Below, in pieces: positions 593 through 63,379 of a stretch of 64,000 bases of DNA. The DNA is taken from NCBI GenBank assembly GCA_044350705.1, contig JBILHA010000002.1, positions 306,295-370,294 on the forward strand. Direction: 5' to 3'. The first letter of the stretch is position 1, and each line of letters starts with the position of its first letter. This stretch comes from Candidatus Kapaibacterium sp. (lineage in GTDB: Bacteria > Patescibacteriota > Patescibacteriia > UBA9934). The translations under genes and the position numbers were made by a program. Below the pieces are notes generated by a model, which saw only the letters and a list, made by a program, of their open reading frames with translations, ran no database searches and was not told where the DNA came from.

Positions 593-623
593 AAAAATCC
601 TCTCTTTCCAGAAAGGATTTTTT
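593..623. terminator. bidirectional rho-independent terminator
   Basis: Stem aaaaatcctctctttc / gaaaggattttt flanked by A and T runs, lying between the convergent ORF and tRNA-Leu. Confidence 0.5.
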
Positions 624-708
624 GGTACCGAGGGCGGGAATTGAACCCGCACGGCATTTCTGCCTGGGGATTTTAAGTCCCCTATGTCTACCATTCCATC
701 ACCCCGGC
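623..708 (-). tRNA. tRNA-Leu(TAA), long variable arm, CCA encoded
   Basis: The reverse complement folds as a cloverleaf. Acceptor GCCGGGG/CCTCGGT has two GU pairs. Anticodon loop is cTTAAaa. T-arm is GCGGGTTCAATTCCCGC. Length 86 nt. Confidence 0.8.
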
Positions 709-722
709 ATACAGATTTCCTA

Positions 723-1225
723 CCCAAGTTTGTCCCTCGCGGTGTCGACTCCTGTGCCCCGGCCTCGTCGTACTTATTAGGTACGTCTTCGGCCGGTGCT
801 CGTCGTCTCCTAGCGGGGAACAAACTTAGTAGGAAATCTTCATTCGACTCGCTTCGTCTCTTTGTTCTCTGCCAGACTCGGCCTCAACGTACTTTATGGG
901 TACGCTTCGGCCTGTGCCGTGCTGTCTCCTTGTATATGGCCAACTTAGTAGCAAATCTTCGCTCGACTCGTCTCGTCTCTTTGTTCTTTACTAGCTCTGT
1001 CTCGTCGTCATTATTGGATACGCCTTCGGCCTGTGCCGTGCCGCCGCCTAGTAGAAACAAACTTAGCGATAAAAATTCACCCGTCACTTCTCTTGCTCGT
1101 TCTGCCACTTTTTTTGTCGACTCCTGTACCCCGGCCTCGTCGTACTTATTAGGTGCGTCTTCGGCCGGTGCTCGTCGTCTCATTGACACTCGGCATCTTA
1201 TATATCACAAACTTCGTGGCAAAAA
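723..1225. repeat. four tandem copies (period about 115-120 bp) of a structured repeat unit with nested palindromic stems; uncharacterised, possibly a structured ncRNA or a REP/MITE-like element
   Basis: Units begin near 723, 850, 965 and 1085. Shared core is cggcctc..cgtac-loop-gtacg.cttcggcc.gtgc...ctag..aacaaacttag..aaatcttc. The outer arms aagtttgt/acaaactt pair. A fifth copy lies at 57551-57670. Confidence 0.6.
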
Positions 1226-1328
1226 TTCAGGGGAAACGAAATAAAACCTGATACATTTTTCCACTTTCCGCTGTTTTCCGCAACCCTCGTGGGCATACCG
1301 AACAAAAACCGATAAGATACCGGGTGAT

Positions 1329-2354
1329 ATGGCTATCGAAGAACATCAGACGACCACTTCCCGAGAGACTGCGCCGGAAGCTCAGGAGCATGAACAGCAA
1401 CAGGAGCTCACCCTGCGTCCGCAGCGACTTTCTGATTTCATCGGTCAACATGATCTTCGGGCGAACTTGGAAATCTTCATTGATGCAGCCAAGTCACGCA
1501 ATGAGCCGCTGGAACACCTTCTTCTTTATGGCAATCCAGGATTAGGCAAAACCACTCTTGCGCATATCATCGGAAGAGAGATGAGTACCAACGTACGCGT
1601 CACGAGCGGTCCTGCGCTTGAACGTGTAGGGGATCTTGCTGCCATTCTTTCGAGCTTGCAACGAGGCGACATTCTCTTTATTGATGAGATTCATCGTATT
1701 AATAAGTCCATTGAGGAAGTTCTCTATCCTGCCATGGAAGATTTTGCGCTTGATGTGGTGGTAGGAAAGGGACCCACTGCTCGTACCCTGCGTCTCAGTT
1801 TAGAGCCTTTCACGATCATCGGTGCCACCACTCGTTTATCTCTTCTTTCCGCACCGTTGCGCGATCGCTTTGGAACGATTTTTCAGCTTGATTTTTATCG
1901 AGATGAGGATATGCGTCGCATCGTTTCTCGCAGCGCATCACTTCTGGGATTTTCTCTCGATGAAGCATCCGCACAAACCATCGCGCAGCGCGCTCGTCGT
2001 ACTCCTCGTATCGCCAATCGGCTTCTCAAGCGTGTACGCGACTTCTCTCAAGTAAAGCATGATGGCGTTATCTCTCCTGAGATCGCGAATGCCGCGCTTG
2101 ATCTGCTTGCTATTGATCCGCTTGGGCTGGATAATGCCGATCGTCGTATTCTTCTCACGCTTATTGAGAAGTTTCAAGGCGGCCCTGTAGGGCTTGGAAC
2201 CCTCGCCGCAGCAACACAAGAAGAACAGGCAACCATTGAGGAAGTTTACGAACCTTACCTTCTCCAGCTGGGCTTTTTAGAGCGTACTACGAGAGGGCGC
2301 ATGGCTACTTCGCGCGCCTACGATCACCTGCGAGTGGAGAAAAAAACTTCCTAG
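1329..2354 (+). CDS. ruvB: Holliday junction branch migration DNA helicase RuvB
   Basis: Walker [18 protein letters not shown] and the RuvB-specific C-terminal winged-helix region, alignable over the full length. Confidence 0.93.
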
Positions 2355-3304: not shown

Positions 3305-5107
3305 TTACTTCCATGTGCGTGATATTTCGACACCCGTATAGAAATATTTCAGAATTTCTTCCCAGGTACTTCCCTCTTTCGCCATACAGATCGCTCCTGA
3401 TGCGGACATTCCTACACCGTGGCCCCATAAACTCTTACCTTGATCACAGGGCACTGCAACGGACTTTGCATAGGGGACTTCTCTTCCCCATACTTCACTC
3501 CAGTTTCTCGTGCGACCATCGGAGCGTGAGAAATAGGAAGTAATTGCCGTTTGTCCTTCGTACGTCACGATCTGTCCGCGCGTCGCCTCGACACCTGCGG
3601 CAATGAGCGGATTGCGCTCTTCTTGACCATAGCCCCAGTACACCTGATCGCGATATGCGTCTACATGATAGCCTTCTGCTGCGTGTTTTGAAGGATTTGT
3701 ATAGTGAAAATATGCATACGTGCGCGCTGCGGTCATGAGTGCTTTTTGGAATTCTTCGGGGGAAGAGTTCGAAGTTTCCGCGAGACCTCGCAAATAATAT
3801 TCCATGGGCAGCTCATTAATGAGCCACGTGCGATCTTTTGTTGCGTTGTAGCGAAGTTCAAGAACGTTTCGGAAGGTGTTATTTGCGTACGACGTTCCTC
3901 GCGTTACTCGGCGATCGAAGTTTGTGACTTCCAGAACTGCATTCGCCGTCACCGGCACAAAGCGAAGCGGGAGCGTTGACGTCTTTTGTGTAGCTCCTGA
4001 TCCGTAGACATAAGTATCACCGCTATATGCTGCGCGTATATCGCTCCCCTTCGGGATGGTGAGGAGATGTTTTCCTGCGGTATCGCGAACTTCTACCTCG
4101 CTTGCGTGCGAACCAATACGCACTTCCCAATCTGTCTCTTCATCGACAATGAGCACTCCCACCCGCATCATGGGCTCTTCGAGCAGATTCTCTTGTACAT
4201 CCTCTTCTTCCTCTGACTCGTTGCTTGGATTTACCCACTCTCCCGTCCCCCCGGTCACTTCGATCGGAAGATTTACCTCTGCGCCTGCAATCTCCTGTTC
4301 ATTTGCTTTGAACGAGAAGACGAGCTTATGCACTCCGTTTACCTGGGGTGTTTGCATGAAAAATTGCACATTTGCCGTTTGGCCGGGAGCGATTGCTTGC
4401 TGCGCAAGTGCTGCTACGGTTTTCCCATTCCAGGAGCTGTGCGCAAATGACGCCTGCTGGTTTCCCGATGCATCATGCAGACTTATTGTATTCCACGTTG
4501 CAGTACCGGTATTTTTCAGGGCAACCATGAACGATATCGGCCTTCCCGCTTTTACTTTGAGGGCATTTGCCGTTTGGGCAACCATCGAGCCTTCATACGT
4601 CAAGGTGTCCGCAGGAGCTTCTTCCGAGGCTTCTTCTGCGCCACCTACGAGAAGATTGAAGGTGAACTGTCCTCCAGGGATCCAGGCAATGTCTTCTGCG
4701 GCAAGCGCAAATGTTTCTTTGTACGTTCCAGGAGTTTGCGGTGCATGCAGCTCAAAGGAAACCGTTCCCGTTCCCCCCGGTGCTACATTCGCTTCATTTA
4801 AGCGTCTCACTTGCGTAGGAGAGAGCCAGTTTCCTGGGTCAAAGCTACTCTTTCGATATTTTGGTTCGTAGGTATATACAGAAATATATCCGGGTCCATC
4901 GTTTTTCCAGGTTGATGCTCCGGTGTTTTGGAACGTCAGCGTCACTTGTCTGCGTTCGCCAGGAGCCATCGCGACCGTTCCACCCCCTGTTGTAGTGACC
5001 CGCAGCGCTGCATACGCCGCGGTTATTGCCTCGGCTGGACGCGGGAGCACGCCCGTAAGCGAGGAGAAAAGAAGACATAACCCTAAAACACATGCACGAA
5101 GACGCAT
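3305..5107 (-). CDS. secreted SpoIID/LytB-domain protein with N-terminal beta-rich repeats
   Basis: Signal peptide. C-terminal SpoIID/LytB amidase-enhancer-like region (..YHVDAYRDQVYWGYGQE..SDGRTRNWSEVWG..). Confidence 0.75.
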   Translation of the reverse strand: MRLRACVLGLCLLFSSLTGVLPRPAEAITAAYAALRVTTTGGGTVAMAPGERRQVTLTFQNTGASTWKNDGPGYISVYTYEPKYRKSSFDPGNWLSPTQVRRLNEANVAPGGTGTVSFELHAPQTPGTYKETFALAAEDIAWIPGGQFTFNLLVGGAEEASEEAPADTLTYEGSMVAQTANALKVKAGRPISFMVALKNTGTATWNTISLHDASGNQQASFAHSSWNGKTVAALAQQAIAPGQTANVQFFMQTPQVNGVHKLVFSFKANEQEIAGAEVNLPIEVTGGTGEWVNPSNESEEEEDVQENLLEEPMMRVGVLIVDEETDWEVRIGSHASEVEVRDTAGKHLLTIPKGSDIRAAYSGDTYVYGSGATQKTSTLPLRFVPVTANAVLEVTNFDRRVTRGTSYANNTFRNVLELRYNATKDRTWLINELPMEYYLRGLAETSNSSPEEFQKALMTAARTYAYFHYTNPSKHAAEGYHVDAYRDQVYWGYGQEERNPLIAAGVEATRGQIVTYEGQTAITSYFSRSDGRTRNWSEVWGREVPYAKSVAVPCDQGKSLWGHGVGMSASGAICMAKEGSTWEEILKYFYTGVEISRTWK

Positions 5108-5123
5108 ACGGTGCTAGTGTACC

Positions 5124-6620
5124 ATGTATACCAGGTCGGTTACACCTCTTTTTCCTCCCTTTTTGGGATTCTCTATGGCCTCTCTTGCCCGTAGTTCTCT
5201 TTTACAAATATCCGGGAAATTACTCGGTATTTTCTTTGGACTTGCCACCTTCTATCTTCTTCTTCACTTTTTTGGTACCGAGGGATACGGCGTTTTTACC
5301 ACTGCGCTTACCTACGTTACTTTCTTTTCTATTGTTGTTGATTTTGGCCTGACGATTACCACCGCTCAGATGATTGCGGAGAAAGGCGCAGATGAGCAAA
5401 AAATTCTTTCCAATCTCTTTGCCTTGCGTATTGTTAGCGCGCTTGCATTCATGATGCTCGCCCCCCTTTCTGCATGGTTTTTGCCCGGCACGGAGAAGGT
5501 ATTTCCCTTAATCTGCATTGGCTCTGCAACGTATTTTTTTGGCGCTATTGCCCAAATGTTCTTAGGGGTTTTCCAGAAGCGTCTTGAGCTTGCTACTCCG
5601 GTTATTGCTGAAATGCTCAGCCGTGCACTCTCTCTGGCGGGCATTCTCTTCGTTGGACTTACCACCCAGTCTCTTCTTCATGCGACGTTCGCCTTTACGC
5701 TTGGCGCTGCCGTTCAATTGGTCATCATGCTCTTTGCCACCCATCGCCGCATTCCCCTTCGGCTTTCCTGGGACTTTTCTGTATGGAAAAATATCCTTTC
5801 TCGCAGCTGGCCTATTGGGCTTTCTATTTTCTTCAACCTCCTTTATCTCAAAGGTGATGTGTTATTTCTTTGGGGGCTTGGAAAAAGTGACTGGGAGATT
5901 GGACAATATGGAGCGGCATACAAAGTCGTTGATATTCTCACCATGGTTCCCGTCACCTTCATGGGACTCGTTCTTCCTCTTCTTACCCTTGCGTGGACTT
6001 CACGGGATCATGGAGGATTTACTCGTCGCATGCAACAGACCATTGATCTTTTTGCCGTCATTTCCATTCCCTGTATTTTCGGAGCATGGGCACTGGGTGT
6101 TCCACTCATGACTGCGGTTAAGCCTGATCTCGCGCTCGCCGGACAGCTTCTTTGGGTTCTCGTTCCTGCCGCGGTTGTCGTTTTCTTTGGCTCGCTCTTT
6201 GGACATGCGGTGGTCGCTCTTCAGGCGCAGCGACCCATGACCTGGAATTATTGCATCGTCGCGGTACTCGGCGTTGCCGGATACCTTCTTCTCGTTCCTC
6301 CGTTTGGCGCCTGGGGCGCTGCTTGGGTAACGCTCTTTTGCGAGGCGGCAATTGCGCTTTTGGCCTACGTTGTTATTCGTAAACGCTGGAAGGCTTCACT
6401 CTCTTTTCTCATCCCACTCAAAGCCTTGGTTGCGAGCGTAGTCATGTTCTTTGCGCTTGAGCTCGTACAATACTTCTTTGCTCCTTTTTCTCCGGTGAGC
6501 TCTCTTCTTCTTTCGTTTGCAATCGGTGTTCTCGTCTATTTCCTCGCACTCTCGGCTGTTCAAGGCCCAACCCTTCGCGATGCAAAAAAATTACTTGCAG
6601 CAGATGCGCGTCAAAGCTAA
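5124..6620 (+). CDS. polysaccharide biosynthesis protein / oligosaccharide flippase (MOP superfamily, Wzx-like)
   Basis: Roughly 12-14 TM helices with Wzx/MurJ-like topology. Start is probably the internal Met near 5175. Confidence 0.7.
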   Translation: MYTRSVTPLFPPFLGFSMASLARSSLLQISGKLLGIFFGLATFYLLLHFFGTEGYGVFTTALTYVTFFSIVVDFGLTITTAQMIAEKGADEQKILSNLFALRIVSALAFMMLAPLSAWFLPGTEKVFPLICIGSATYFFGAIAQMFLGVFQKRLELATPVIAEMLSRALSLAGILFVGLTTQSLLHATFAFTLGAAVQLVIMLFATHRRIPLRLSWDFSVWKNILSRSWPIGLSIFFNLLYLKGDVLFLWGLGKSDWEIGQYGAAYKVVDILTMVPVTFMGLVLPLLTLAWTSRDHGGFTRRMQQTIDLFAVISIPCIFGAWALGVPLMTAVKPDLALAGQLLWVLVPAAVVVFFGSLFGHAVVALQAQRPMTWNYCIVAVLGVAGYLLLVPPFGAWGAAWVTLFCEAAIALLAYVVIRKRWKASLSFLIPLKALVASVVMFFALELVQYFFAPFSPVSSLLLSFAIGVLVYFLALSAVQGPTLRDAKKLLAADARQS

Positions 6621-6626
6621 TTTCGT

Positions 6627-7898
6627 ATGCTCTTCTCTTTTTTTCTCCTTCTTACGCTCGGACTTTTTACCTGGCTGAGCATCCGTCATTTTCATAGTGC
6701 CCTTCTCCTCTTTCTTGCTCTTTTTCCTACCTATCTCATCCGCTTCTCCCTTGGCCCTCTTCCTACCACCCTTCTTGAGCTGTGTTTTTTTGTTCTCTTT
6801 GGTGTTTGGGTTGTTCGTCGTTTGCGCGCGCATACCCTCTTTCTTCCTTCTCGGGGCATTCTTGTTTTCTTTTTTCTTCTCAGCATCCTTCCTTTGGCGG
6901 TGGTTCCCGGTGAACACCTCCTGTCCTCGCTTGGGCTTTGGCGGGCATATTTCCTCGAGCCATTCTTGCTCGGGTGGATCCTTTGGCATGAGTTGCAAGA
7001 TGAAACCATTCGTCTTCGAGCGTTTCTTGGCCTTTCGCTCTCTGGTTTTTTCCTCGCAGCGCTTGGTATTTTTCAATTCAGTACTGGGCTGGGCATTCCT
7101 GCTCCCTGGGATATTGAGCGAAGGATTACGAGTGTCTTTGATTACCCTAATGCCCTTGGACTTTTTCTCGCCCCTCTTTTAAGTGCACTTTTGGTATTCG
7201 GAATTTGCACCTGGAAGAATCGTCTTCCTCATGAAAAAACGTTTCTCGCTGGAGCGTGCACGGTCATGCTTCTTGCCATCATCTTGGCAAAAACTGAAGC
7301 TGCGCTTGTCGCCGTTCCTGCTGCGGTATTCATTTCGCTTTTCATTTCCCCCCTCATCTTACGCAAACATAAAATCATTGCCGGAGTTTTCGCTTCTCTT
7401 GCGCTTGTCGGTGCATTTGCTTTCCCCCACATTCGAGCCAAGCTTCTTCTTCAAGATTTCTCTGGAGGCGTACGACTCTCGCAGTGGAAAGAAACGATCG
7501 AGCTTCTCAAAGATCACCCGATTACTGGCGCAGGCATAGGATATTATCCCGAACTTCTCCGGACTTCTTATCATCACGATTGGCAGTATGAGATTTTCCA
7601 ATATCCCCACAATATTCTTCTCAACATCTGGGTTGAGTTGGGTATTTTAGGCGTGGTTCTTTTTCTTGTGGGCGCGTGCTATCTCGGAAGAAGCGTTTGG
7701 AAACAGCGTTCTTCTCCTCTTCCTCTTGCCGCAGGTGCTGCACTTCTTGCCATGGCTATTCATGGACTTGTTGATGTTCCTTTTTTTAAAAATGATTTAG
7801 CGATGATGACGGTGGTGTTTGTGATTTTTATCATGGGAGCAGCGGGGAGTAAGGATGGGAACATAGGGAGTATGCATGGAAGCACGGGGAGTAAGTAA
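6627..7898 (+). CDS. O-antigen ligase family (Wzy_C-like) membrane protein
   Basis: Polytopic membrane protein with a large periplasmic loop typical of the O-antigen ligase/WaaL family. Confidence 0.65.
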   Translation: MLFSFFLLLTLGLFTWLSIRHFHSALLLFLALFPTYLIRFSLGPLPTTLLELCFFVLFGVWVVRRLRAHTLFLPSRGILVFFFLLSILPLAVVPGEHLLSSLGLWRAYFLEPFLLGWILWHELQDETIRLRAFLGLSLSGFFLAALGIFQFSTGLGIPAPWDIERRITSVFDYPNALGLFLAPLLSALLVFGICTWKNRLPHEKTFLAGACTVMLLAIILAKTEAALVAVPAAVFISLFISPLILRKHKIIAGVFASLALVGAFAFPHIRAKLLLQDFSGGVRLSQWKETIELLKDHPITGAGIGYYPELLRTSYHHDWQYEIFQYPHNILLNIWVELGILGVVLFLVGACYLGRSVWKQRSSPLPLAAGAALLAMAIHGLVDVPFFKNDLAMMTVVFVIFIMGAAGSKDGNIGSMHGSTGSK

Positions 7899-8016
7899 AA
7901 TAGGCGATTTTTGTTTTTTACAGAGTTTTCCTTTCTTTTCTAAACGCAAAACGAGCGTCCGGGACGTGTCACACGCGATTGCGTGACACGCCCGAACGCT
8001 CGAGACGAAGGGGAGG

Positions 8017-8580
8017 CTAGCGGCACATCCCCACAAAGAGGGTGTTCGCGCCGCGGACCCGGAGGTCCACATCGCAGGTCGACTTTGCGACTTGCGTCGC
8101 CAGCGCTCCCTGCATGATGTGGTACGGGTCCCCCAGCACGATGGCCGGGAGGGTGGTGCCGGGGACGACCCCCGGACTCTCGATATCCAGGCCGGACATC
8201 GAGTACCTGGTCACCGTCACGCTCACGAGCGTTACGGCGCCGAAGTCCACCCATCCGCGCTCGCCGGGAGCGAGCACCGAGGCACACCGCGTGCCGGTCG
8301 GCCCAGCGACGTACACGCACTGCGTGACGCCACCTTCCGTAACGACGGCACGGGGTACGCCGCCGGAGCCGGCAGAGGTTCGATAGGAGAACCCCAGCTC
8401 GATGGCTGCGTCGGTGTTGTTGATGAACTGCACCACCGTGGGACCCGCCTTGGGGACACGCATCACCTGCGCTCCCAGCATCCCCGTGTTCGGGCTCACC
8501 GCCGGGTTGGCGGAAGCAGAGGAGATGGCGAGAACCAGGGCGGCGAGGAAGCTAAACATGGGAGGCTCCATGGGGCACAA
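8017..8580 (-). CDS. secreted hypothetical protein (high-GC island)
   Basis: Sec signal peptide MFSFLAALVLAISSASA, Cys-containing mature part, GC-rich codons. Confidence 0.6.
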   Translation of the reverse strand: MCPMEPPMFSFLAALVLAISSASANPAVSPNTGMLGAQVMRVPKAGPTVVQFINNTDAAIELGFSYRTSAGSGGVPRAVVTEGGVTQCVYVAGPTGTRCASVLAPGERGWVDFGAVTLVSVTVTRYSMSGLDIESPGVVPGTTLPAIVLGDPYHIMQGALATQVAKSTCDVDLRVRGANTLFVGMCR

Positions 8581-8733
8581 GGCCCGGTGAGGAAAGGACG
8601 TGCTCGGGACAGGATGTCATCGAGCGGTGTATGCACTCCTCATCGAGAAGGACATGCACTGCATGATGAGCTGATTCAGGGGAGCCAACAGTGCATTGCT
8701 GCGTGTTGGCTCCCCCACGGGAACGAGGGCCTT

Positions 8734-9333
8734 CTAGCGACCGGCGGCCGCGCGGGCTCGGGCCTCGGCGGCCGCGACCTCGGCGGGGGTGGGCCCGGGG
8801 GGCGGGGGGCGACGGGTCTGCGCGTGCGCGGGCGCGGGGGGCGGCGGGAGGAAACCCCCGCCGTTGACGGCCTGCAGAGCCGCCATGTCGGCGGCCGCCT
8901 GGCTGGGCCAGCCACCGAGCGGCACGCCGAGCGTGCCCTGCATCGCGGCGTAGGACGCCGCTTGGCCGGTCGCCACCTCCCCATCGGTGGATACGTAGGT
9001 GTCGCGGCCCTGGGCCGCGGCGGTGACGGCCACCGTCGCCCCCGCCTGGGCGAGGGTGAGGGCGGCCTGGGCCTGGGCCTGGGCCCGAACGCACTGCGCG
9101 CGGGCATCCGCCGCGGCGGCGAGCATCTCGCTCGCCGCCTCCGCGCTCAGGAACTGCGCACCGTTGGTGCGCAGGTTGGCACAGCCGTCCGGGCCCCAGC
9201 CCACGACGAGCGCGGGGTCCCGGGCGAAGAGCCCGGAACGGTTGCGAACGGGGGCCGGCTCCTCGGCGGAAGCCGGGGAGGAGGTGGCGACGAGGGCGGC
9301 GATCAGGGACAGCGAGAACAGGATGGAACGCAT
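8734..9333 (-). CDS. secreted Ala/Gln/Pro-rich hypothetical protein (high-GC island)
   Basis: Signal peptide MRSILFSLSLIAALVATSSPASA. Low-complexity AQAQAQ and PPPP tracts. Confidence 0.55.
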   Translation of the reverse strand: MRSILFSLSLIAALVATSSPASAEEPAPVRNRSGLFARDPALVVGWGPDGCANLRTNGAQFLSAEAASEMLAAAADARAQCVRAQAQAQAALTLAQAGATVAVTAAAQGRDTYVSTDGEVATGQAASYAAMQGTLGVPLGGWPSQAAADMAALQAVNGGGFLPPPPAPAHAQTRRPPPPGPTPAEVAAAEARARAAAGR

Positions 9334-9433
9334 GAGCGTTTCCCCTTTGCCTTTCGGCGGTGTGGCCCGAAGGCCGTTGTTTCAACGATCATTCGGTACA
9401 ATGCGTGGCTTTCCACGTCATTTCCGAACAGTT

Positions 9434-9463
9434 CAGTATAGCAAAAAAATGCAAAAAAATCAA
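9434..9463 (-). promoter_or_regulatory. sigma70-like promoter (TTGATT-17-TATACT) for the 8734-9333 gene
   Basis: Read on the minus strand; about 100 nt upstream of the start codon. Near-exact mirror image of the promoter at 9619-9646. Confidence 0.5.
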
Positions 9464-9618
9464 GCTAAGAGGCGAATGGGATTTCACATGGAAACTTGGG
9501 ATTTCTTAATAAAACCGCGGGTATTACGTCTCAGAACGGGGGTGGGGATAGGTGTGTGAATATCGGACTTGTCGAAATGACATTCTTAAAATTCTTCCCC
9601 TTCCTTCTCTTTCTCTCC

Positions 9619-9646
9619 ATTGATTTTTTTGCATTTTTTTGCTATG
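9619..9646 (+). promoter_or_regulatory. sigma70-like promoter (TTGATT-16-TATGAT) for the 9754-11844 gene
   Basis: About 100 nt upstream of the start. ttgattttttgcatttttttgct is the reverse complement of 9441-9463. Confidence 0.5.
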
Positions 9647-9753
9647 ATGCGCCGTTCCAGATCCATGCTTCCTGCATGAGAAATGGACGATCTCTCACAA
9701 TCCTCTTCATCACTTCACCCCCTGGTTCGCAGTGAACCAGATAGGAGAACCGT

Positions 9754-23838: not shown

Positions 23839-23849
23839 CTTTTATGACA

Positions 23850-23945
23850 TTGCCCCACTCCGCTCCAGCGGAGCTTCGTTGGGGGCAATCCCACTTCGTC
23901 TTTTGGTTCGACATCCCTAACGGAGCCCGAAGGGCGAAGTGGGAT
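23850..23945 (-). other. two stable hairpins immediately 3' of tRNA-Ser (possible processed trailer or small structured RNA)
   Basis: ttgcccc..ctccgc-tcca-gcggag..ggggcaa and atcccacttcg...cccttcggg...cgaagtgggat. Neither is a tRNA. Confidence 0.35.
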
Positions 23946-56736: not shown

Positions 56737-57216
56737 TTAGCCCTTTTTCATTTTTTCAATATCGTTTAAGAGTTTTTGTAAATTTGCTGCCATTGCATCG
56801 AGGGTTTGCTGATGTTCACGTTCGCGCTCTTCCTCTTCCGCTTCATCTTCTTTGATTTCGTCTACGTCTTCCTCGATCGCATCAATGTCTTCCTGAATTT
56901 CTCCCACGTCCTCTTGAATCTCTCCGACGTCTTCCTGAATTTCATCCACGTCTTTTTGAATCTCGTCGACATCTTGTTCGACTTCTTTAATTACTTGCGA
57001 CTGTTGGTTTACGCTCATTTGAATGAAGATGGCGAGATAAATTGCTTCTAAAGACACCCCTGTCGTGAGCACGAGAAGCACGGTATCCCAGGAAAGAAGT
57101 TCGAGAATTCCTACGAGAAGAATTGCTCCGAAGAGAAAGGTGTGCACGATAAGTGAGGAAAGAGATCCTACCCAGGTCGTAATTTTTTCGATGAAGTTTG
57201 TCTGTTGCTCGTGCAT
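56737..57216 (-). CDS. DUF1003-family membrane protein with a C-terminal acidic EIQEDV tandem-repeat tail
   Basis: Two TM helices (TFLFGAILLVGILELL; VLLVLTTGVSLEAIYLAIFIQ), then (V/I)DEIQEDV repeats. Start taken at MHEQQTN; the upstream part of the track ORF overlaps tRNA-Arg. Confidence 0.55.
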   Translation of the reverse strand: MHEQQTNFIEKITTWVGSLSSLIVHTFLFGAILLVGILELLSWDTVLLVLTTGVSLEAIYLAIFIQMSVNQQSQVIKEVEQDVDEIQKDVDEIQEDVGEIQEDVGEIQEDIDAIEEDVDEIKEDEAEEEEREREHQQTLDAMAANLQKLLNDIEKMKKG

Positions 57217-57264
57217 AGCCCCCCTATTGTACTCCTTCTTTTTCCCCACTACACTGTATGCCAT

Positions 57265-57341
57265 GCCTCGGTAGCTCAGTTGGATAGAGCAGGAGACTTC
57301 TAAGCTCAAGGTCGGGGGTTCGATTCCCTCCCGAGGCACCA
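57265..57341 (+). tRNA. tRNA-Arg(TCT), CCA encoded; anticodon stem has two mismatches
   Basis: Acceptor GCCTCGG/CCGAGGC is perfect. D-arm is GCTC-AGTTGGATA-GAGC. Anticodon loop is CTTCTAA. T-arm is GGGGGTTCGATTCCCTC. Confidence 0.7.
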
Positions 57342-57426: not shown

Positions 57427-57463
57427 TAAAAAATCCTCGTCGTATTATTGAGAGGATTTTTTA
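57427..57463. terminator. bidirectional terminator between convergent tRNA-Arg and tRNA-His
   Basis: aaaaaaatcctc-gtcgtattattga-gaggatttttt. Confidence 0.65.
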
Positions 57464-57538
57464 TGGGGCGACTAACGAGGATCGAACTCGTGTAGCCGGG
57501 ACCACAACCCGGTGCTCTACCATTGAGCTATAGCCGCC
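57464..57538 (-). tRNA. tRNA-His(GTG) with genomically encoded G-1 and CCA
   Basis: Acceptor GCGGCTA/TAGTCGC, G-1 opposite discriminator C73, anticodon loop tTGTGgt, T-arm ACGAGTTCGATCCTCGT. Confidence 0.85.
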
Positions 57539-57550
57539 ATGTCGACAAAA

Positions 57551-57670
57551 TATACCCAAGTTTGTTTATTGCGGTGTTATCGGTACTGGGCTCGGCCTCC
57601 CCGTACGTTGTAGTACGTATCGGCCTGCGCCGTACCGTCGCCTAGCACTAAACAAACTTAGTATATTTTG
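57551..57670. repeat. single copy of the structured repeat family seen at 723-1225, abutting the 5' side of tRNA-His
   Basis: cccaagtttgtttattgcggtgt...cggtac..ggcctc..cgtac-gttgtag-tacg..ggcc..gtaccg..ctagcactaaacaaacttagta. Same nested-stem architecture, with compensatory changes relative to unit 1. Confidence 0.6.
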
Positions 57671-57832
57671 TGTTTCTTTTACAGAACGTTAAATTTGCGG
57701 GAGAAGAATAGCATGGATTTTTATAAAAAAGCAAGATAGGGGGAGGGGGTTATGTTTGCTTCTGATCCCCTTTCCTCAATCCCCTCATTCCCTTTTCTCC
57801 CCCTTCTCCCCTTGCTATGATGCCCCTATTCT

Positions 57833-60460
57833 ATGGAAGCTCAAAAAACCTTTATTGTTCTTGATGGAAATGCCCTTTTGCATCGCGCATGGCATGCTAT
57901 TCCGCCTCTTACCACGCGTGATGGAAGAGTGGTGAATGCGGCCTATGGCTTTACGAACGTTGTCGAGAAGATGCTGAACGTCTACAAGCCTGATTACATG
58001 GCAGTTGCGTGGGATTTGCCTGGCGCGACCTTTCGGCATGAGGCGTATGAAGCGTATAAGGCTCAACGTGAAAAGAAAGCGGATGAGCTCTATGAACAGA
58101 TTCCGATCATTCAAGAAATTCTTGCAGCCTACGGGATTCCTTCCTTGAGTGCTCCAGGATATGAGGCTGATGATGTTATTGGCACTCTTGCAAAGATGAA
58201 CGATGAGGAAGGAGGGATTGATACGCTTATTGTGACGGGAGATCGTGATGCGTTGCAGCTCGTGAATGAAACGACGAAGGTATTGTTTTTTGTAAAAGGA
58301 CTTTCTGAAGTGAAATTGTTTGATGCGGCTGCGGTTGAAGAAAAGTACGGCGTTACTCCGCTTGAGCTTATTGAAGTGAAGGCGCTTATGGGTGACTCTT
58401 CTGATAATTTGCCGGGTGTTCCGGGCATTGGGGAGAAGAGTGCGGTAGAGCTTGTTAAGCAGTTTGGGGGTGTTGCGGGTATTTTACAGGCGCTCAAGAA
58501 GGGTGAGATGCCCGATAAATACGCAAAGAAATTTGTTGGTCATGAAAATACGGCTGAACAGATGCGCATGCTTGTAGAAATTGCTCGGACGATTCCTCTT
58601 CCTGAGTTTCAACGTCAAGCATGTGCAATGCGTGGGCCGGATGAAACGCGCTTGCGCGCGCTTTTTACTGATCTCGAGTTTTCTTCTTTGCTTAAAAAAT
58701 ACGGTGGTGCTTCTTCCTCCTCCTCTGTTCCTCTTGCTGCAACAAAAGAGAAAAAGCGTACGAAGAAGAAGGATTCTCCTCCTGGGGGAACGCATGTTGC
58801 TACACCTGGCGGTGTCATTGGAGAGTGGATTGGTGTGCTTGTGACTACCAAGCAGCCAGACATGTTTGGCGCTTCTGTGGCGTCTGTGGTTCTTTCTGAT
58901 GGCAAGCGTTTGTGGAAAGCGGAACATCCCGACAAGGCTGTCTTAGAAGAGGTTGCACGGGCGCTTTTTAGCGCAAAATGGATTGTGACCCATGGCGCAA
59001 AGAATATTTTGCATGCGTTTGCTGATATGGGAGTCACGCTTTCCGGAGCATTTTCTTCTCGTCAACTTTATGACGCGGAGGTTATTGCCTACATGTTTAA
59101 TTCGAGCGCCCGAGAGTTTCCTTTGGAGAGTGTGGTGCATGACGTGCTTGAGAAAGATGTGAAAGGTGAAGAAGAGCTTGCGCTTGTTTTGCCTGAACTT
59201 GCTGAGGGGCTTCGTAAGAGATTGGAGGAAGTAGGCATGGAAAAGCTTTACCGGGAGGTAGAAATGCCGCTTATTTCCGTATTGTTTTCCATGGAGCATG
59301 AAGGTATTTGTGTCGATAAGAAGATGCTCTCTGGTCTCGCCAAGACGTTTGGTGAAAAAGTACAGTTACTTACAAAAGAAATTTGTTCTCTTGCAGGAGA
59401 AGATTTTAATGTGAACTCCCCTTCCCAATTGGCGACGATTCTTTTTGAGAAACTACAATTGCCGACGAAGGGTATTAAGAAAACGAAATCGGGATATTCT
59501 ACTGCGGCACCGGAACTTGAGAAGCTATGGGACGCCCATAAGATCGTTCCGCTCATTGAAGAGTATCGAGAGGTTGCCAAGCTTAAATCCACGTATGCAG
59601 ATACGCTTCCTGAACTTGTCGGTCCTGATGGACGTATTCATTCACGGTTCAACCAGACGGTTGCGGCAACGGGGAGATTGTCTTCATCAAACCCGAATTT
59701 GCAGAACATTCCTATTCGTACTGATTTGGGAAAGAAGATCCGTTATGCGTTTGTTGCAAAAGAGGATCACGTTCTTCTCTCCGCTGACTATTCGCAGATT
59801 GAGCTTCGTTTAGCTGCGGAACTTGCGCATGACGACTCATTTGTTCGTGCTTTTAAGGATGGAGCTGATATTCATCGAAGAACTGCTGCGGAAGTATGGA
59901 ATATTTCTGAAGAGGAGGTGACAAAGGAGCAGCGTGCCGCAGCAAAGGCGATTAACTTTAGTATTTTGTATGGTGTAGGCCCTCGTGCGCTTGCACGATC
60001 TACGGGCATGCATTTTGAAGAAGCGCGAGAATTCATTGCACGATATTTCGCGGTGCATCCAGGGATCCAAGCGTATATCGATGCCATGAAGTTACAGGCG
60101 CGGTCGCAGGGGTATGTACAAACGCTCTTTGGACGCCGACGTTATCTTCCTGATATTACTTCCGGCGTTCCTCAGCTTGTTGCTGCGGCTGAGCGCATGG
60201 CTATGAATATGCCTATTCAAGGGACGCAGGCGGATATTATTAAAATGGCCATGATTACGCTTTCCTCTTCCCTGGAGAAGTCTGATCTTCGAGCAAAGCT
60301 TTTGCTTCAGGTGCATGACGAACTCATTTTTGAGGTGCATGAAGAAGACGTGCAAGAAGTGGAGAAGCTCGTTCGAGAGAAAATGGTAAGCGTAGCGACT
60401 TTTAAGGTGCCTTTGGTGGTAGATGTGGCGACGGGAAAATCATGGGGAGATATTGTGTAG
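57833..60460 (+). CDS. polA: DNA polymerase I
   Basis: 5'-3' exonuclease domain (LDGNALLHRAWHA...), polymerase motifs A (LLSADYSQIELR), B (RRAAKAINFSILYG) and C (LQVHDELIFEV). Confidence 0.95.
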   Translation: MEAQKTFIVLDGNALLHRAWHAIPPLTTRDGRVVNAAYGFTNVVEKMLNVYKPDYMAVAWDLPGATFRHEAYEAYKAQREKKADELYEQIPIIQEILAAYGIPSLSAPGYEADDVIGTLAKMNDEEGGIDTLIVTGDRDALQLVNETTKVLFFVKGLSEVKLFDAAAVEEKYGVTPLELIEVKALMGDSSDNLPGVPGIGEKSAVELVKQFGGVAGILQALKKGEMPDKYAKKFVGHENTAEQMRMLVEIARTIPLPEFQRQACAMRGPDETRLRALFTDLEFSSLLKKYGGASSSSSVPLAATKEKKRTKKKDSPPGGTHVATPGGVIGEWIGVLVTTKQPDMFGASVASVVLSDGKRLWKAEHPDKAVLEEVARALFSAKWIVTHGAKNILHAFADMGVTLSGAFSSRQLYDAEVIAYMFNSSAREFPLESVVHDVLEKDVKGEEELALVLPELAEGLRKRLEEVGMEKLYREVEMPLISVLFSMEHEGICVDKKMLSGLAKTFGEKVQLLTKEICSLAGEDFNVNSPSQLATILFEKLQLPTKGIKKTKSGYSTAAPELEKLWDAHKIVPLIEEYREVAKLKSTYADTLPELVGPDGRIHSRFNQTVAATGRLSSSNPNLQNIPIRTDLGKKIRYAFVAKEDHVLLSADYSQIELRLAAELAHDDSFVRAFKDGADIHRRTAAEVWNISEEEVTKEQRAAAKAINFSILYGVGPRALARSTGMHFEEAREFIARYFAVHPGIQAYIDAMKLQARSQGYVQTLFGRRRYLPDITSGVPQLVAAAERMAMNMPIQGTQADIIKMAMITLSSSLEKSDLRAKLLLQVHDELIFEVHEEDVQEVEKLVREKMVSVATFKVPLVVDVATGKSWGDIV

Positions 60461-63029: not shown

Positions 63030-63151
63030 AAGGTGAGTTGACCGTGATAGTTACGTTATTTATACTTTATCCGTCTTCATTTGGAAGGGCGTTGTAGGCA
63101 GTATAGCATTCTACGCGAACAATTACCGAACATTGTGTATAGTGTATACAA

Positions 63152-63173
63152 ATGTTTCACGTGAAACATTTGT
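63152..63173. promoter_or_regulatory. 22-bp perfect palindrome AAATGTTTCACGTGAAACATTT (candidate operator)
   Basis: Perfectly self-complementary. The 14-bp core recurs at 63578-63591, with half-sites (CATGTGAAAC) at about 63181 and 63279. Confidence 0.4.
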
Positions 63174-63195
63174 ATAGATTCATGTGAAACATTCT

Positions 63196-63271
63196 GTCCC
63201 CATAGTTCAATTGGATAGAACGTGGGCGTCCTAAGCCTGTAATCCTGGTTCAAATCCGGGTGGGGACACCA
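63196..63271 (+). tRNA. tRNA-Arg(CCT), CCA encoded
   Basis: Acceptor GTCCCCA/TGGGGAC, anticodon loop gTCCTaa, T-arm CTGGTTCAAATCCGG. Confidence 0.8.
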
Positions 63272-63379
63272 TTGCTTCATGTGAAACGCCTTTCGGGCCT
63301 TTGGCTCGGTTGGCATCGTGTTGTATTCGCTTGGGGTGGGTTCACGGTTCTCGTCTGTTTGACTCCACTCTGATTCAGA

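Follow-up and report, generated by a model that had tools for sequence, protein, structure and literature searches.

A strand-asymmetric palindromic repeat at tRNA gene boundaries of an Uhrbacteria-like genome, possibly carried in pre-tRNA leaders

ERIC elements are confined to Enterobacteria and Vibrio, and E. coli genomes contain ERIC, REP and similar elements; we know of no case in which ERIC targets tRNA ends. Miniature inverted-repeat transposable elements (MITEs) can be co-transcribed with neighbouring genes. REP and REPIN elements, a REPIN being two inverted REPs, are mobilised by RAYT transposases (Y1), and to our knowledge REPINs are not shared between phyla. Integron attC sites, imperfect palindromes of 57-141 bp, are active when one strand is folded. 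Here we describe a palindromic repeat in a 64-kb stretch of contig JBILHA010000002.1 (the window), which belongs to a Candidatus Uhrbacteria-like lineage as judged by PolA homologues. The window holds two intact 127-nt hairpins, referred to below as rods, and three rearranged copies (840-1225). We propose that the element is a strand-asymmetric palindromic repeat of ~125 nt, mobile or formerly mobile, which inserts at tRNA gene boundaries and rides as a passenger in the pre-tRNA leader until RNase P removes it, and we put the probability of this reading at about one half.

Units were delineated using repeat finders, folding and a covariance model that was built from 13 Patescibacteria copies and then used to align 20 copies (Table 1). 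The array region (709-1229) lies between tRNA-Leu(UAA) on the minus strand and ruvB (1329-2354, plus strand) and carries four cores at successive distances of 119, 118 and 135 nt. Tandem Repeats Finder reports a period of 119 nt at 823-1041 with 82% matches, and u1 and u4 share a 67-nt direct repeat that is 97% identical. Rod u5 is located between tRNA-His (minus strand) and polA (57833-60460, plus strand). With filters off, the model detected no further copies in the 64 kb beyond u1-u5. A first-pass annotation of this DNA had described a repeat family with five nested-helix units at these two loci. The direct repeats, the 119-nt period and the model matches, which comprise two full copies in the window and related copies elsewhere, establish the family, but only u1 and u5 are intact. 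Units u2 and u3 lack a pairing 5′ arm, u2 keeping its core and 3′ arm (plus-strand reading), and u4 has its own outer stem (CTGCCAC/GTGGCA), an extra insert of ~25 nt and a rearranged arm.

Each intact rod forms a single long, imperfect hairpin. The z-scores range from -6.7 to -9.9 whichever strand is folded, and none of 200 shuffles folds as well. The outermost 10 bp of the helix are AGATTTCCTA/TAGGAAATCT in u1 and ACAAAATATA/TATATTTTGT in u5; these stems are unrelated in sequence and each is perfectly paired. The element had been thought to start about 13 nt from the tRNA. Its helix extends 9-10 bp further, and the gap between rod and tRNA 5′ end is 4 nt for u1 (tRNA-Leu) and 6-7 nt for u5 (tRNA-His). 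While the long outer stem of each rod is variable in sequence, an inner module of the form (A/U)AGG...GAGC..GGCC-GA-nn-CGUAC-loop-GUACG-nn-GA-GGCC...GACA is conserved, also across phyla. Within it the five-pair CGUAC/GUACG stem and the GGCC/GGCC stem are invariant among the 20 aligned copies, and the apical loop of 6-8 nt is free to vary. GGCCG and GAGGCC are also invariant, and the core consists of 13-nt inverted arms flanking a variable spacer of 6-8 nt. A "CUUCGG" element first read as a tetraloop spans an internal loop and part of the GGCC stem.

Pairing in the 20-copy alignment is far from random. Standard pairs occupy 93.9% of alignment cells as opposed to 72.1% in shuffled alignments, changes on both sides are seen in 26 of 38 pairs, and none of 500 shuffles reached any of the observed pairing measures. 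Sliding the partner columns by 1-3 positions lowers pairing to 33-43%. The middle helix, which MAFFT aligns poorly, covaries, with CGAC/GUCG, CGGUAC/GUACCG, GAUGCC/GGCAUC, GAAUGAC/GUCAUUC and CGAUAC/GUAUCG as its forms; the first two are the change between the window loci in which pairing had been noticed to be kept, and this change is real. The pairing statistics are good evidence for a selected fold of a single strand, and to this extent the earlier claim of a selected structure stands. Covariation cannot, however, separate RNA from single-stranded DNA, and it is no proof of a selected RNA, since palindromic DNA repeats covary too, and template switching can keep such DNA paired.

The two strands are not equivalent. 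We refer to the strand originally described as P and to its reverse complement, which in the window is the minus strand and the strand of both tRNAs, as R. It is R, rather than P, that folds better, in 100 of 111 non-coding loci that bear the core and by a mean of -10 kcal/mol, because R has G.U and tandem G.A pairs where P has C.A and pyrimidine-pyrimidine mismatches. These G.A/G.U elements on R are CGAG, GAGCGA and GGCC-GA...GA-GGCC. The asymmetry sits in the conserved inner module; the copy-specific outermost stems have ~7 wobble pairs on R and ~5 on P, which is no real bias.

In Uhrbacteria-like Patescibacteria, the rods are tightly linked to tRNA genes. The 19 primary copies occupy 16 different tRNA sites, and in every one of them the distance to the end of the tRNA gene is -1 to 7 nt. 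Eleven of them, including both window rods, lie upstream of a tRNA whose strand is that of R. For the remaining eight, the tRNA is on the opposite strand with its 3′ CCA end towards the rod, and these copies are bordered on their two sides by A-runs and T-runs of 4-7. In 19 of 19 copies the 3′ end of the R strand is directed at the tRNA gene. Read along R, therefore, the rod is always directly 5′ of a tRNA or of the reverse complement of a tRNA. At each of two loci, L084 and L117, a pair of rods with opposite polarity is separated by 40-190 bp, each rod facing its own tRNA, and such pairs rule out a replication-strand rule as the source of the polarity. The combination of exact spacing, use of both gene ends and a single polarity indicates targeted insertion. 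Isolated pieces of rod arm, for example CCTACTAAGTTCG...CAAGGAG and GCTAGCCAGCGAAAATCATATGAGG, are also present beside intact rods at L054 (250-340) and L051 (7400-7450), where they look like remnants of earlier copies.

Comparison of related genomes shows gain and loss at orthologous sites. At tRNA-His the rod is present in the same species (L135 and L136) and missing from five relatives with 64-79% PolA identity (L131, L133, L134, L137 and L139); across nine related contigs (130 kb) the covariance model detected copies in the same species alone. After removal of the rod in silico, the tRNA-His leader of the window aligns with those of the relatives. In this rod-deleted alignment a TTGnnn-18-TATTCT motif is conserved 35 nt upstream of u5, and TG(C/T)TATTCT is kept in the window and four relatives. 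As the relatives have no rod and the promoter-like motif upstream of the rod is conserved, u5 is a lineage-specific and recent insertion into what would be the leader of tRNA-His; a gap of 6-7 nt separates it from the mature 5′ end. At tRNA-Arg(GCG), L102 has a rod at the CCA end where L054 and L069 have a plain hairpin (A-run, stem, T-run), and the reverse pattern is found at tRNA-Ser(GCU).

The array beside tRNA-Leu has been rearranged. Two genus-level relatives, L123 and L124, keep the synteny of tRNA-Leu, rods and ruvB with arrays that differ from that of the window: the tRNA-Leu-proximal rod is of another type in L123 and a chimera of two types in L124, and the u2 arm in the window matches one arm of the intact tRNA-proximal rod of L123. 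The outer stem closest to tRNA-Leu stays paired in both the window and L123, a double change from C-G to G-C notwithstanding. In the conspecific L135 (98% PolA identity), a strain-specific island (4600-9712) with IS1595-type and DDE_Tnp_4 transposase genes has integrated in tRNA-His; it carries its own, different tRNA-His, and the truncated old tRNA-His stays joined to the rod. The L135 rod differs from that of the window by five substitutions, three of which fall in otherwise conserved motifs (including AGG to AAG and GGCCGA to GGCCAA).

The position of the rods relative to promoter-like sequences suggests that they lie within leaders. With only 4-7 nt between rod and tRNA there is no room for a promoter there. 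A promoter inside the rod was considered and rejected: a -35-like TGGACA is present, but the matching -10 would fall within the tRNA. At the tRNA-Leu locus, the window, L123 and L124 share the hexamers TTGCGG and AAAAAT, which are separated by a variable spacer and located upstream of the entire array, and a putative tRNA-His promoter corresponds to the motif upstream of u5 (Table 1). A promoter consensus scan lists TTGCCA-16-TAAGAT at 1222..1195 instead, which is not above chance, and no promoter motif shared upstream of all rods was seen. A leader element and a miniature repeat aimed at tRNA 5′ flanks had been among the options first proposed. The insertion of u5 between a conserved promoter-like motif and its tRNA agrees in part with both, whereas the eight copies at tRNA 3′ ends take away the specificity for 5′ flanks.

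To delimit the family, a 22-base core pattern was searched in one-genome-per-species bacterial assemblies, where ~1 chance match is expected in 596 Gb by our estimate. At least 119 loci matched. The listed matches fall in Nitrospirota, Betaproteobacteria, Chlamydiota, Planctomycetota, Acidobacteriota, Nitrospinota and Patescibacteria, so that the element is not restricted to one genome; actinobacterial matches were in the coding sequence of short-chain dehydrogenases and were left out as chance. Among the listed matches, Nitrospirota have two families (~125 nt and ~250 nt), Casimicrobiaceae and other Betaproteobacteria have one of ~166-190 nt with conserved ends flanked by CTAG, Chlamydiota and Planctomycetota have one, and Acidobacteriota, Nitrospinota and delta-proteobacterial genomes provide single cases. 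The families differ in their outer parts and have the inner module in common, including the (A/U)AGG and GAGC/GACA internal-loop motifs. Nitrospira copies score 55-75 bits over the full length of a model made from Patescibacteria copies only, and this model also picks up at least 8 additional copies in which the 22-base search pattern is missing. These observations indicate that the similarity between phyla is not an artefact of the pattern.

Outside Patescibacteria the copies behave as dispersed repeats. No tRNA is found near any of the listed loci, related Nitrospira genomes have copies at orthologous positions, and orientation relative to neighbouring genes shows no bias (17 co-directional versus 24, by a crude and noisy method based on stop-to-stop open reading frames, ORFs). 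A metagenome scan returned 11 loci, 3 of them genuine. There were no matches in viral contigs or in plasmids, and none in 5,426 complete E. coli genomes searched by blastn with 11-base words, which fits the result expected if the element belongs to none of the ERIC, REP or similar families of that species. An all-versus-all comparison of 2,293 ORFs near copies, made in search of a partner gene, yielded only ABC ATPases, CBS proteins, response regulators and orthologous synteny. At the gathering threshold, Rfam 15 found only tRNAs in the window and 18 related loci, in agreement with the initial failure to place the element in any known non-coding RNA family; in E-value mode on 560-1400 its only hits were weak, fell outside the repeat and are put down to chance. 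Full-text searches of the literature turned up no account of the element. Of the initial idea of a new tRNA-linked structured RNA, the structure and the tight tRNA linkage hold in Patescibacteria, but the copies dispersed away from tRNAs in other phyla do not fit it, and the repeat is apparently an undescribed family of bacterial palindromic repeats, not a new class of tRNA-specific RNA.

Two further identities were considered and rejected. A single-copy RNA gene (5S, SRP, 6S, Y-RNA or tRNA-like) does not agree with an element that is multi-copy and forms an unbranched rod with a variable apical loop. At betaproteobacterial loci (e.g. L044 5500-5700, L010 and L002) the folding strand has AAAGGAG, 3 nt, ATG and an 18-codon frame that ends at a UGA inside GGUGAGGCC, an arrangement conserved within that family. 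The frame probably does not encode a peptide, because it contains the variable loop; in Patescibacteria copies the start codon is missing.

In the reading we favour, a rod would be inserted right at the boundary of a tRNA gene with its well-folding strand directed at the tRNA. In the window, the rods would then be transcribed from the minus strand within a pre-tRNA-Leu leader of ~540 nt, with four units, and a pre-tRNA-His leader of ~170 nt. There they would fold as a long hairpin and leave when RNase P cuts the tRNA 5′ end, and the long near-perfect outer helices would also suit RNase III. The four-unit array beside tRNA-Leu would have arisen locally, as rods were duplicated in tandem and recombined unequally. 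In related genomes, the rods at tRNA 3′ ends take the place that a plain terminator hairpin has in others. The element is thus pictured as most likely a tolerated passenger: because tRNA flanks are trimmed from the precursor, an insert would be harmless, and it could survive next to tRNAs in a compact genome. Survival by trimming leaves the exact spacing, the use of both ends and the single polarity unexplained. Conservation across phyla, non-canonical pairs included, suggests that some factor, either a mobilising enzyme or a host protein, reads the apical module.

Several points weigh against this reading. What the sequences show directly is the structure, the asymmetry of the strands, the linkage to tRNAs with its polarity, the gain and loss among relatives and the placement relative to a conserved promoter-like motif. 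Transcription of the rods, their removal by RNase P, their neutrality and the insertion mechanism are steps that we infer. The promoter assignments are putative, rest on conservation and a weak likeness to sigma-70 promoters, and are absent from the list produced by the consensus scan. No transposase, conserved terminal repeat or direct target duplication was found in the copies and their neighbourhoods. Pure selfishness fails to explain an apical module of ~35 nt kept across phyla, including pairs that are not Watson-Crick, and gives no reason why a compensatory change has preserved the outer stem of the tRNA-proximal rod in the window and L123. Exact spacing and fixed polarity at both tRNA ends demand a targeting mechanism. 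Moreover, copies at tRNA 3′ ends would put the poorly folding strand in the tRNA transcript, and co-transcription is therefore not the whole story. On the matter of mechanism, we tentatively consider a mobile element that is active as a folded single strand, of DNA or RNA, with the G.A-rich apex as the handle for an enzyme, and that recognises the folded end of a tRNA gene in Uhrbacteria. Although we think this rather unlikely as stated, it would fit the rods, because each lies directly 5′ of a tRNA or of its reverse complement on its own structured strand.

Three other explanations are ranked below that of a leader passenger. The rod might be a functional non-coding RNA, made from the well-folding strand and released as a stable hairpin of ~130 nt whose G.A-rich apex would bind a conserved protein or RNA partner. 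RNase P would release it where it is upstream of a tRNA, its own U-run would do so where it faces a 3′ end, and the tRNA linkage would serve expression and 3′-end formation. In favour of such an RNA are the inner-module sequence conserved across phyla, with its invariant GGCCG and GAGGCC and conserved G.U positions, the strand asymmetry at 100 of 111 loci, a polarity towards the tRNA that is fixed at both ends, and the compensatory outer-stem change between orthologous arrays. The L135 rod, altered at conserved motif positions where the neighbouring tRNA-His is truncated, is also in keeping with it. We nevertheless hold it to be doubtful, as rods are gained and lost among close relatives (the nine contigs of 130 kb have none except in the same species), the extra copies in arrays are visibly decaying, no conserved promoter is seen upstream of the copies, those in other phyla show no strand bias relative to genes by the crude count above, and dispersed multi-copy families with family-specific ends resemble repeats and not genes.

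Alternatively, rods could be elaborated intrinsic terminators or insulators that end tRNA transcripts at the 3′ side and block read-in from neighbours at either side. The plain A-run/stem/T-run hairpin that L054 and L069 have exactly at the site of the L102 rod beside tRNA-Arg(GCG) is what this would predict, as are the A-runs and T-runs of 3′-end copies, and the strongly folding strand is the one read by a polymerase heading to the tRNA gene. In the window, however, rods between a conserved promoter and a tRNA would shut that tRNA off, u1 has no T-run, and neither rod is listed by a terminator scan. The folding energy is -57 kcal/mol or better for both strands, at which level a difference of 10 kcal/mol cannot matter, and a 125-nt hairpin with a conserved apex far exceeds what termination needs; this explanation is accordingly the least probable of those considered. 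Improbable as well is that the rod is a substrate for recombination or transposition of single-stranded DNA, like attC or the ends of IS200/IS605, inserted beside the base of a folded tRNA acceptor stem. The favoured explanation does not specify how rods move, and this would be one form that such a mechanism could take. The tRNA and its reverse complement are both capable of forming a cloverleaf in single-stranded DNA, and a rod placed 5′ of either would explain why both ends are used with one polarity; the inverted arms of the core around a variable spacer and the lack of strand bias in other phyla are compatible with it. Against this, no gene for an HUH or tyrosine recombinase is linked to the copies, their ends carry no conserved cleavage motif, the adjacent rods of opposite polarity at L084 and L117 exclude a simple replication-strand rule, and conserved G.U pairs are more typical of RNA.

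Table 1. Positions of repeat units, tRNA genes and putative promoters in the window.
Feature	Position	Strand	Evidence
Rod u1, intact 127-nt hairpin	713-839	-	covariance model 118.4 bits, E 1e-28; minimum free energy -65.9 kcal/mol, z -9.9
Parts of rod u1: outer stem; conserved core (GGCC..CGTAC-loop-GTACG..GGCC)	713-722/830-839; 761-794	-	
Unit u2, partial copy	840-958	-	model match 860-932, 42 bits, model positions 27-98; fold
Unit u3, tandem duplicate of u2, further decayed	959-1079	-	weak model match 952-1079
Unit u4	1101-1225	-	core 1115-1181; model match 1117-1181, 38.8 bits; fold of 700-1240
Rod u5, intact 127-nt hairpin, core 57594-57625	57545-57671	-	model 110.2 bits; fold z -8.0
tRNA-Leu(UAA)	623-708	-	ARAGORN; Rfam tRNA 55.7 bits
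tRNA-His(GUG), encoded G-1 at 57538	57464-57538	-	ARAGORN 57464-57537; Rfam 65.6 bits; G-1 from sequence
Putative tRNA-His promoter	57705-57734	-	-35 TTGCTT 57734..57729, 18-nt spacer, -10 TATTCT 57710..57705
Putative promoter of array and tRNA-Leu (inferred)	1255-1283	-	TTGCGG, 17 nt, AAAAAT

Other structured sequences were observed near tRNA genes of the window. Both tRNA-Leu and tRNA-His end in ordinary bidirectional terminator hairpins (590-622 and 57428-57462) with an A-run, a TCCTC-type stem and a T-run, which have the same form as the hairpin replaced by a rod at tRNA 3′ ends in other genomes. Two GC-rich hairpins of another kind stand in series at 23846-23944 (TTGCCCCA...TGGGGGCAA, then TCCCACTTCG...CGAAGTGGGA), and the second abuts the 3′ CCA end of tRNA-Ser(CGA). 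The tRNA flanks of this genome thus seem to collect structured inserts from more than one family. The tRNA-Arg(CCU) gene (63196-63271) lies between two copies of the 12-nt direct repeat TTCATGTGAAAC (63179-63190 and 63276-63287), with a perfect 32-nt palindrome (63145-63176) upstream, and the repeat and palindrome together may be the footprint of an insertion or attachment site. Tandem repeats of 21 and 42 nt (56846-56975) are contained in a minus-strand ORF (56737-57339), which adjoins tRNA-Arg(UCU) and encodes a small DUF948-like membrane protein with acidic EIQEDVG-like repeats.

The rod is a widespread structured element, found in several phyla and absent from Rfam, for which a covariance model is now available. 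In one lineage of the candidate phyla radiation, tRNA gene borders serve as precise and polar landing sites on both sides of the gene, and rods drive local tandem rearrangements next to tRNA genes. Should this linkage hold throughout the genome, tRNA gene ends must be recognised by some machinery that acts on DNA or RNA; we know of no bacterial system that does so in this way. If recognition takes place on a folded strand, the rods would be a bacterial analogue, acting through structure recognition, of the insertions targeted to tRNA genes in eukaryotes. The tandem G.A stack around the GGCC helix offers structural RNA biology a compact motif. In annotation of metagenome-assembled genomes, rods will pass for novel small RNAs, terminators or assembly artefacts.

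Among described repeats, the 127-bp imperfect palindromes known as ERIC or IRU are like the rod in length, in being palindromic over the whole element, in being multi-copy and non-coding and in having no transposase of their own. ERIC/IRU lies in transcribed non-coding DNA, as rods in the proposed leaders would by analogy. There is no sequence similarity, as judged by the search of E. coli genomes, and the rod core, unlike ERIC, spans several phyla. Resemblances to MITEs, including Correia/NEMIS of Neisseria, are also numerous. Both are short and non-coding, form long hairpins and are present or absent at orthologous sites (for the rod tRNA-His, tRNA-Arg(GCG) and tRNA-Ser(GCU)); the rod has a length of ~125 nt, no conserved ORF and multiple copies per genome and per 8-kb locus, and its betaproteobacterial relatives have conserved CTAG-flanked ends, as in IS630-type MITEs. 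Shared terminal inverted repeats are absent, the outermost 9-10 bp differing in every Patescibacteria copy. No parent insertion sequence was found, in that no transposase recurs near the copies and plasmids gave no match. Target-site duplications are lacking too: the flanks are inverted complements, and the empty and filled tRNA-His sites differ without a duplication. The conserved part of the rod is its centre, whereas in MITEs it is the ends.

REP and REPIN elements share with the rod a palindromic, strand-specific hairpin, an intergenic and dispersed distribution and, in some cases, vertical stability at orthologous sites. REP units are 20-40 nt long and bear a GTAG or CGTC tag (PMC3733652). 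The rod is instead a single hairpin of 125 nt with no conserved tag and with arms that are not palindromic, and no RAYT gene was seen next to the copies. Intrinsic terminators are approached most closely by the related copies at tRNA 3′ ends, which hold the terminator position and have flanking A- and T-runs. The rod is ~4 times longer than a terminator and has a conserved apex. A hairpin with a U-run after a gene 3′ end is found only in these relatives and not in the window rods, which are upstream of tRNAs in the leader. In attC sites, as in rods, structure is conserved more than outer sequence. R''/R' boxes (RYYYAAC/GTTRRRY) are absent from the base of the rod stem, no cassette array or integrase is nearby, the neighbours in the window being tRNAs and housekeeping genes, and the conserved part is the apex in the rod and the base in attC. 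Taken together, these comparisons place the rod among bacterial palindromic repeats, for which a G.A-rich core common to distant phyla and a strict polar link to both ends of tRNA genes are unusual.

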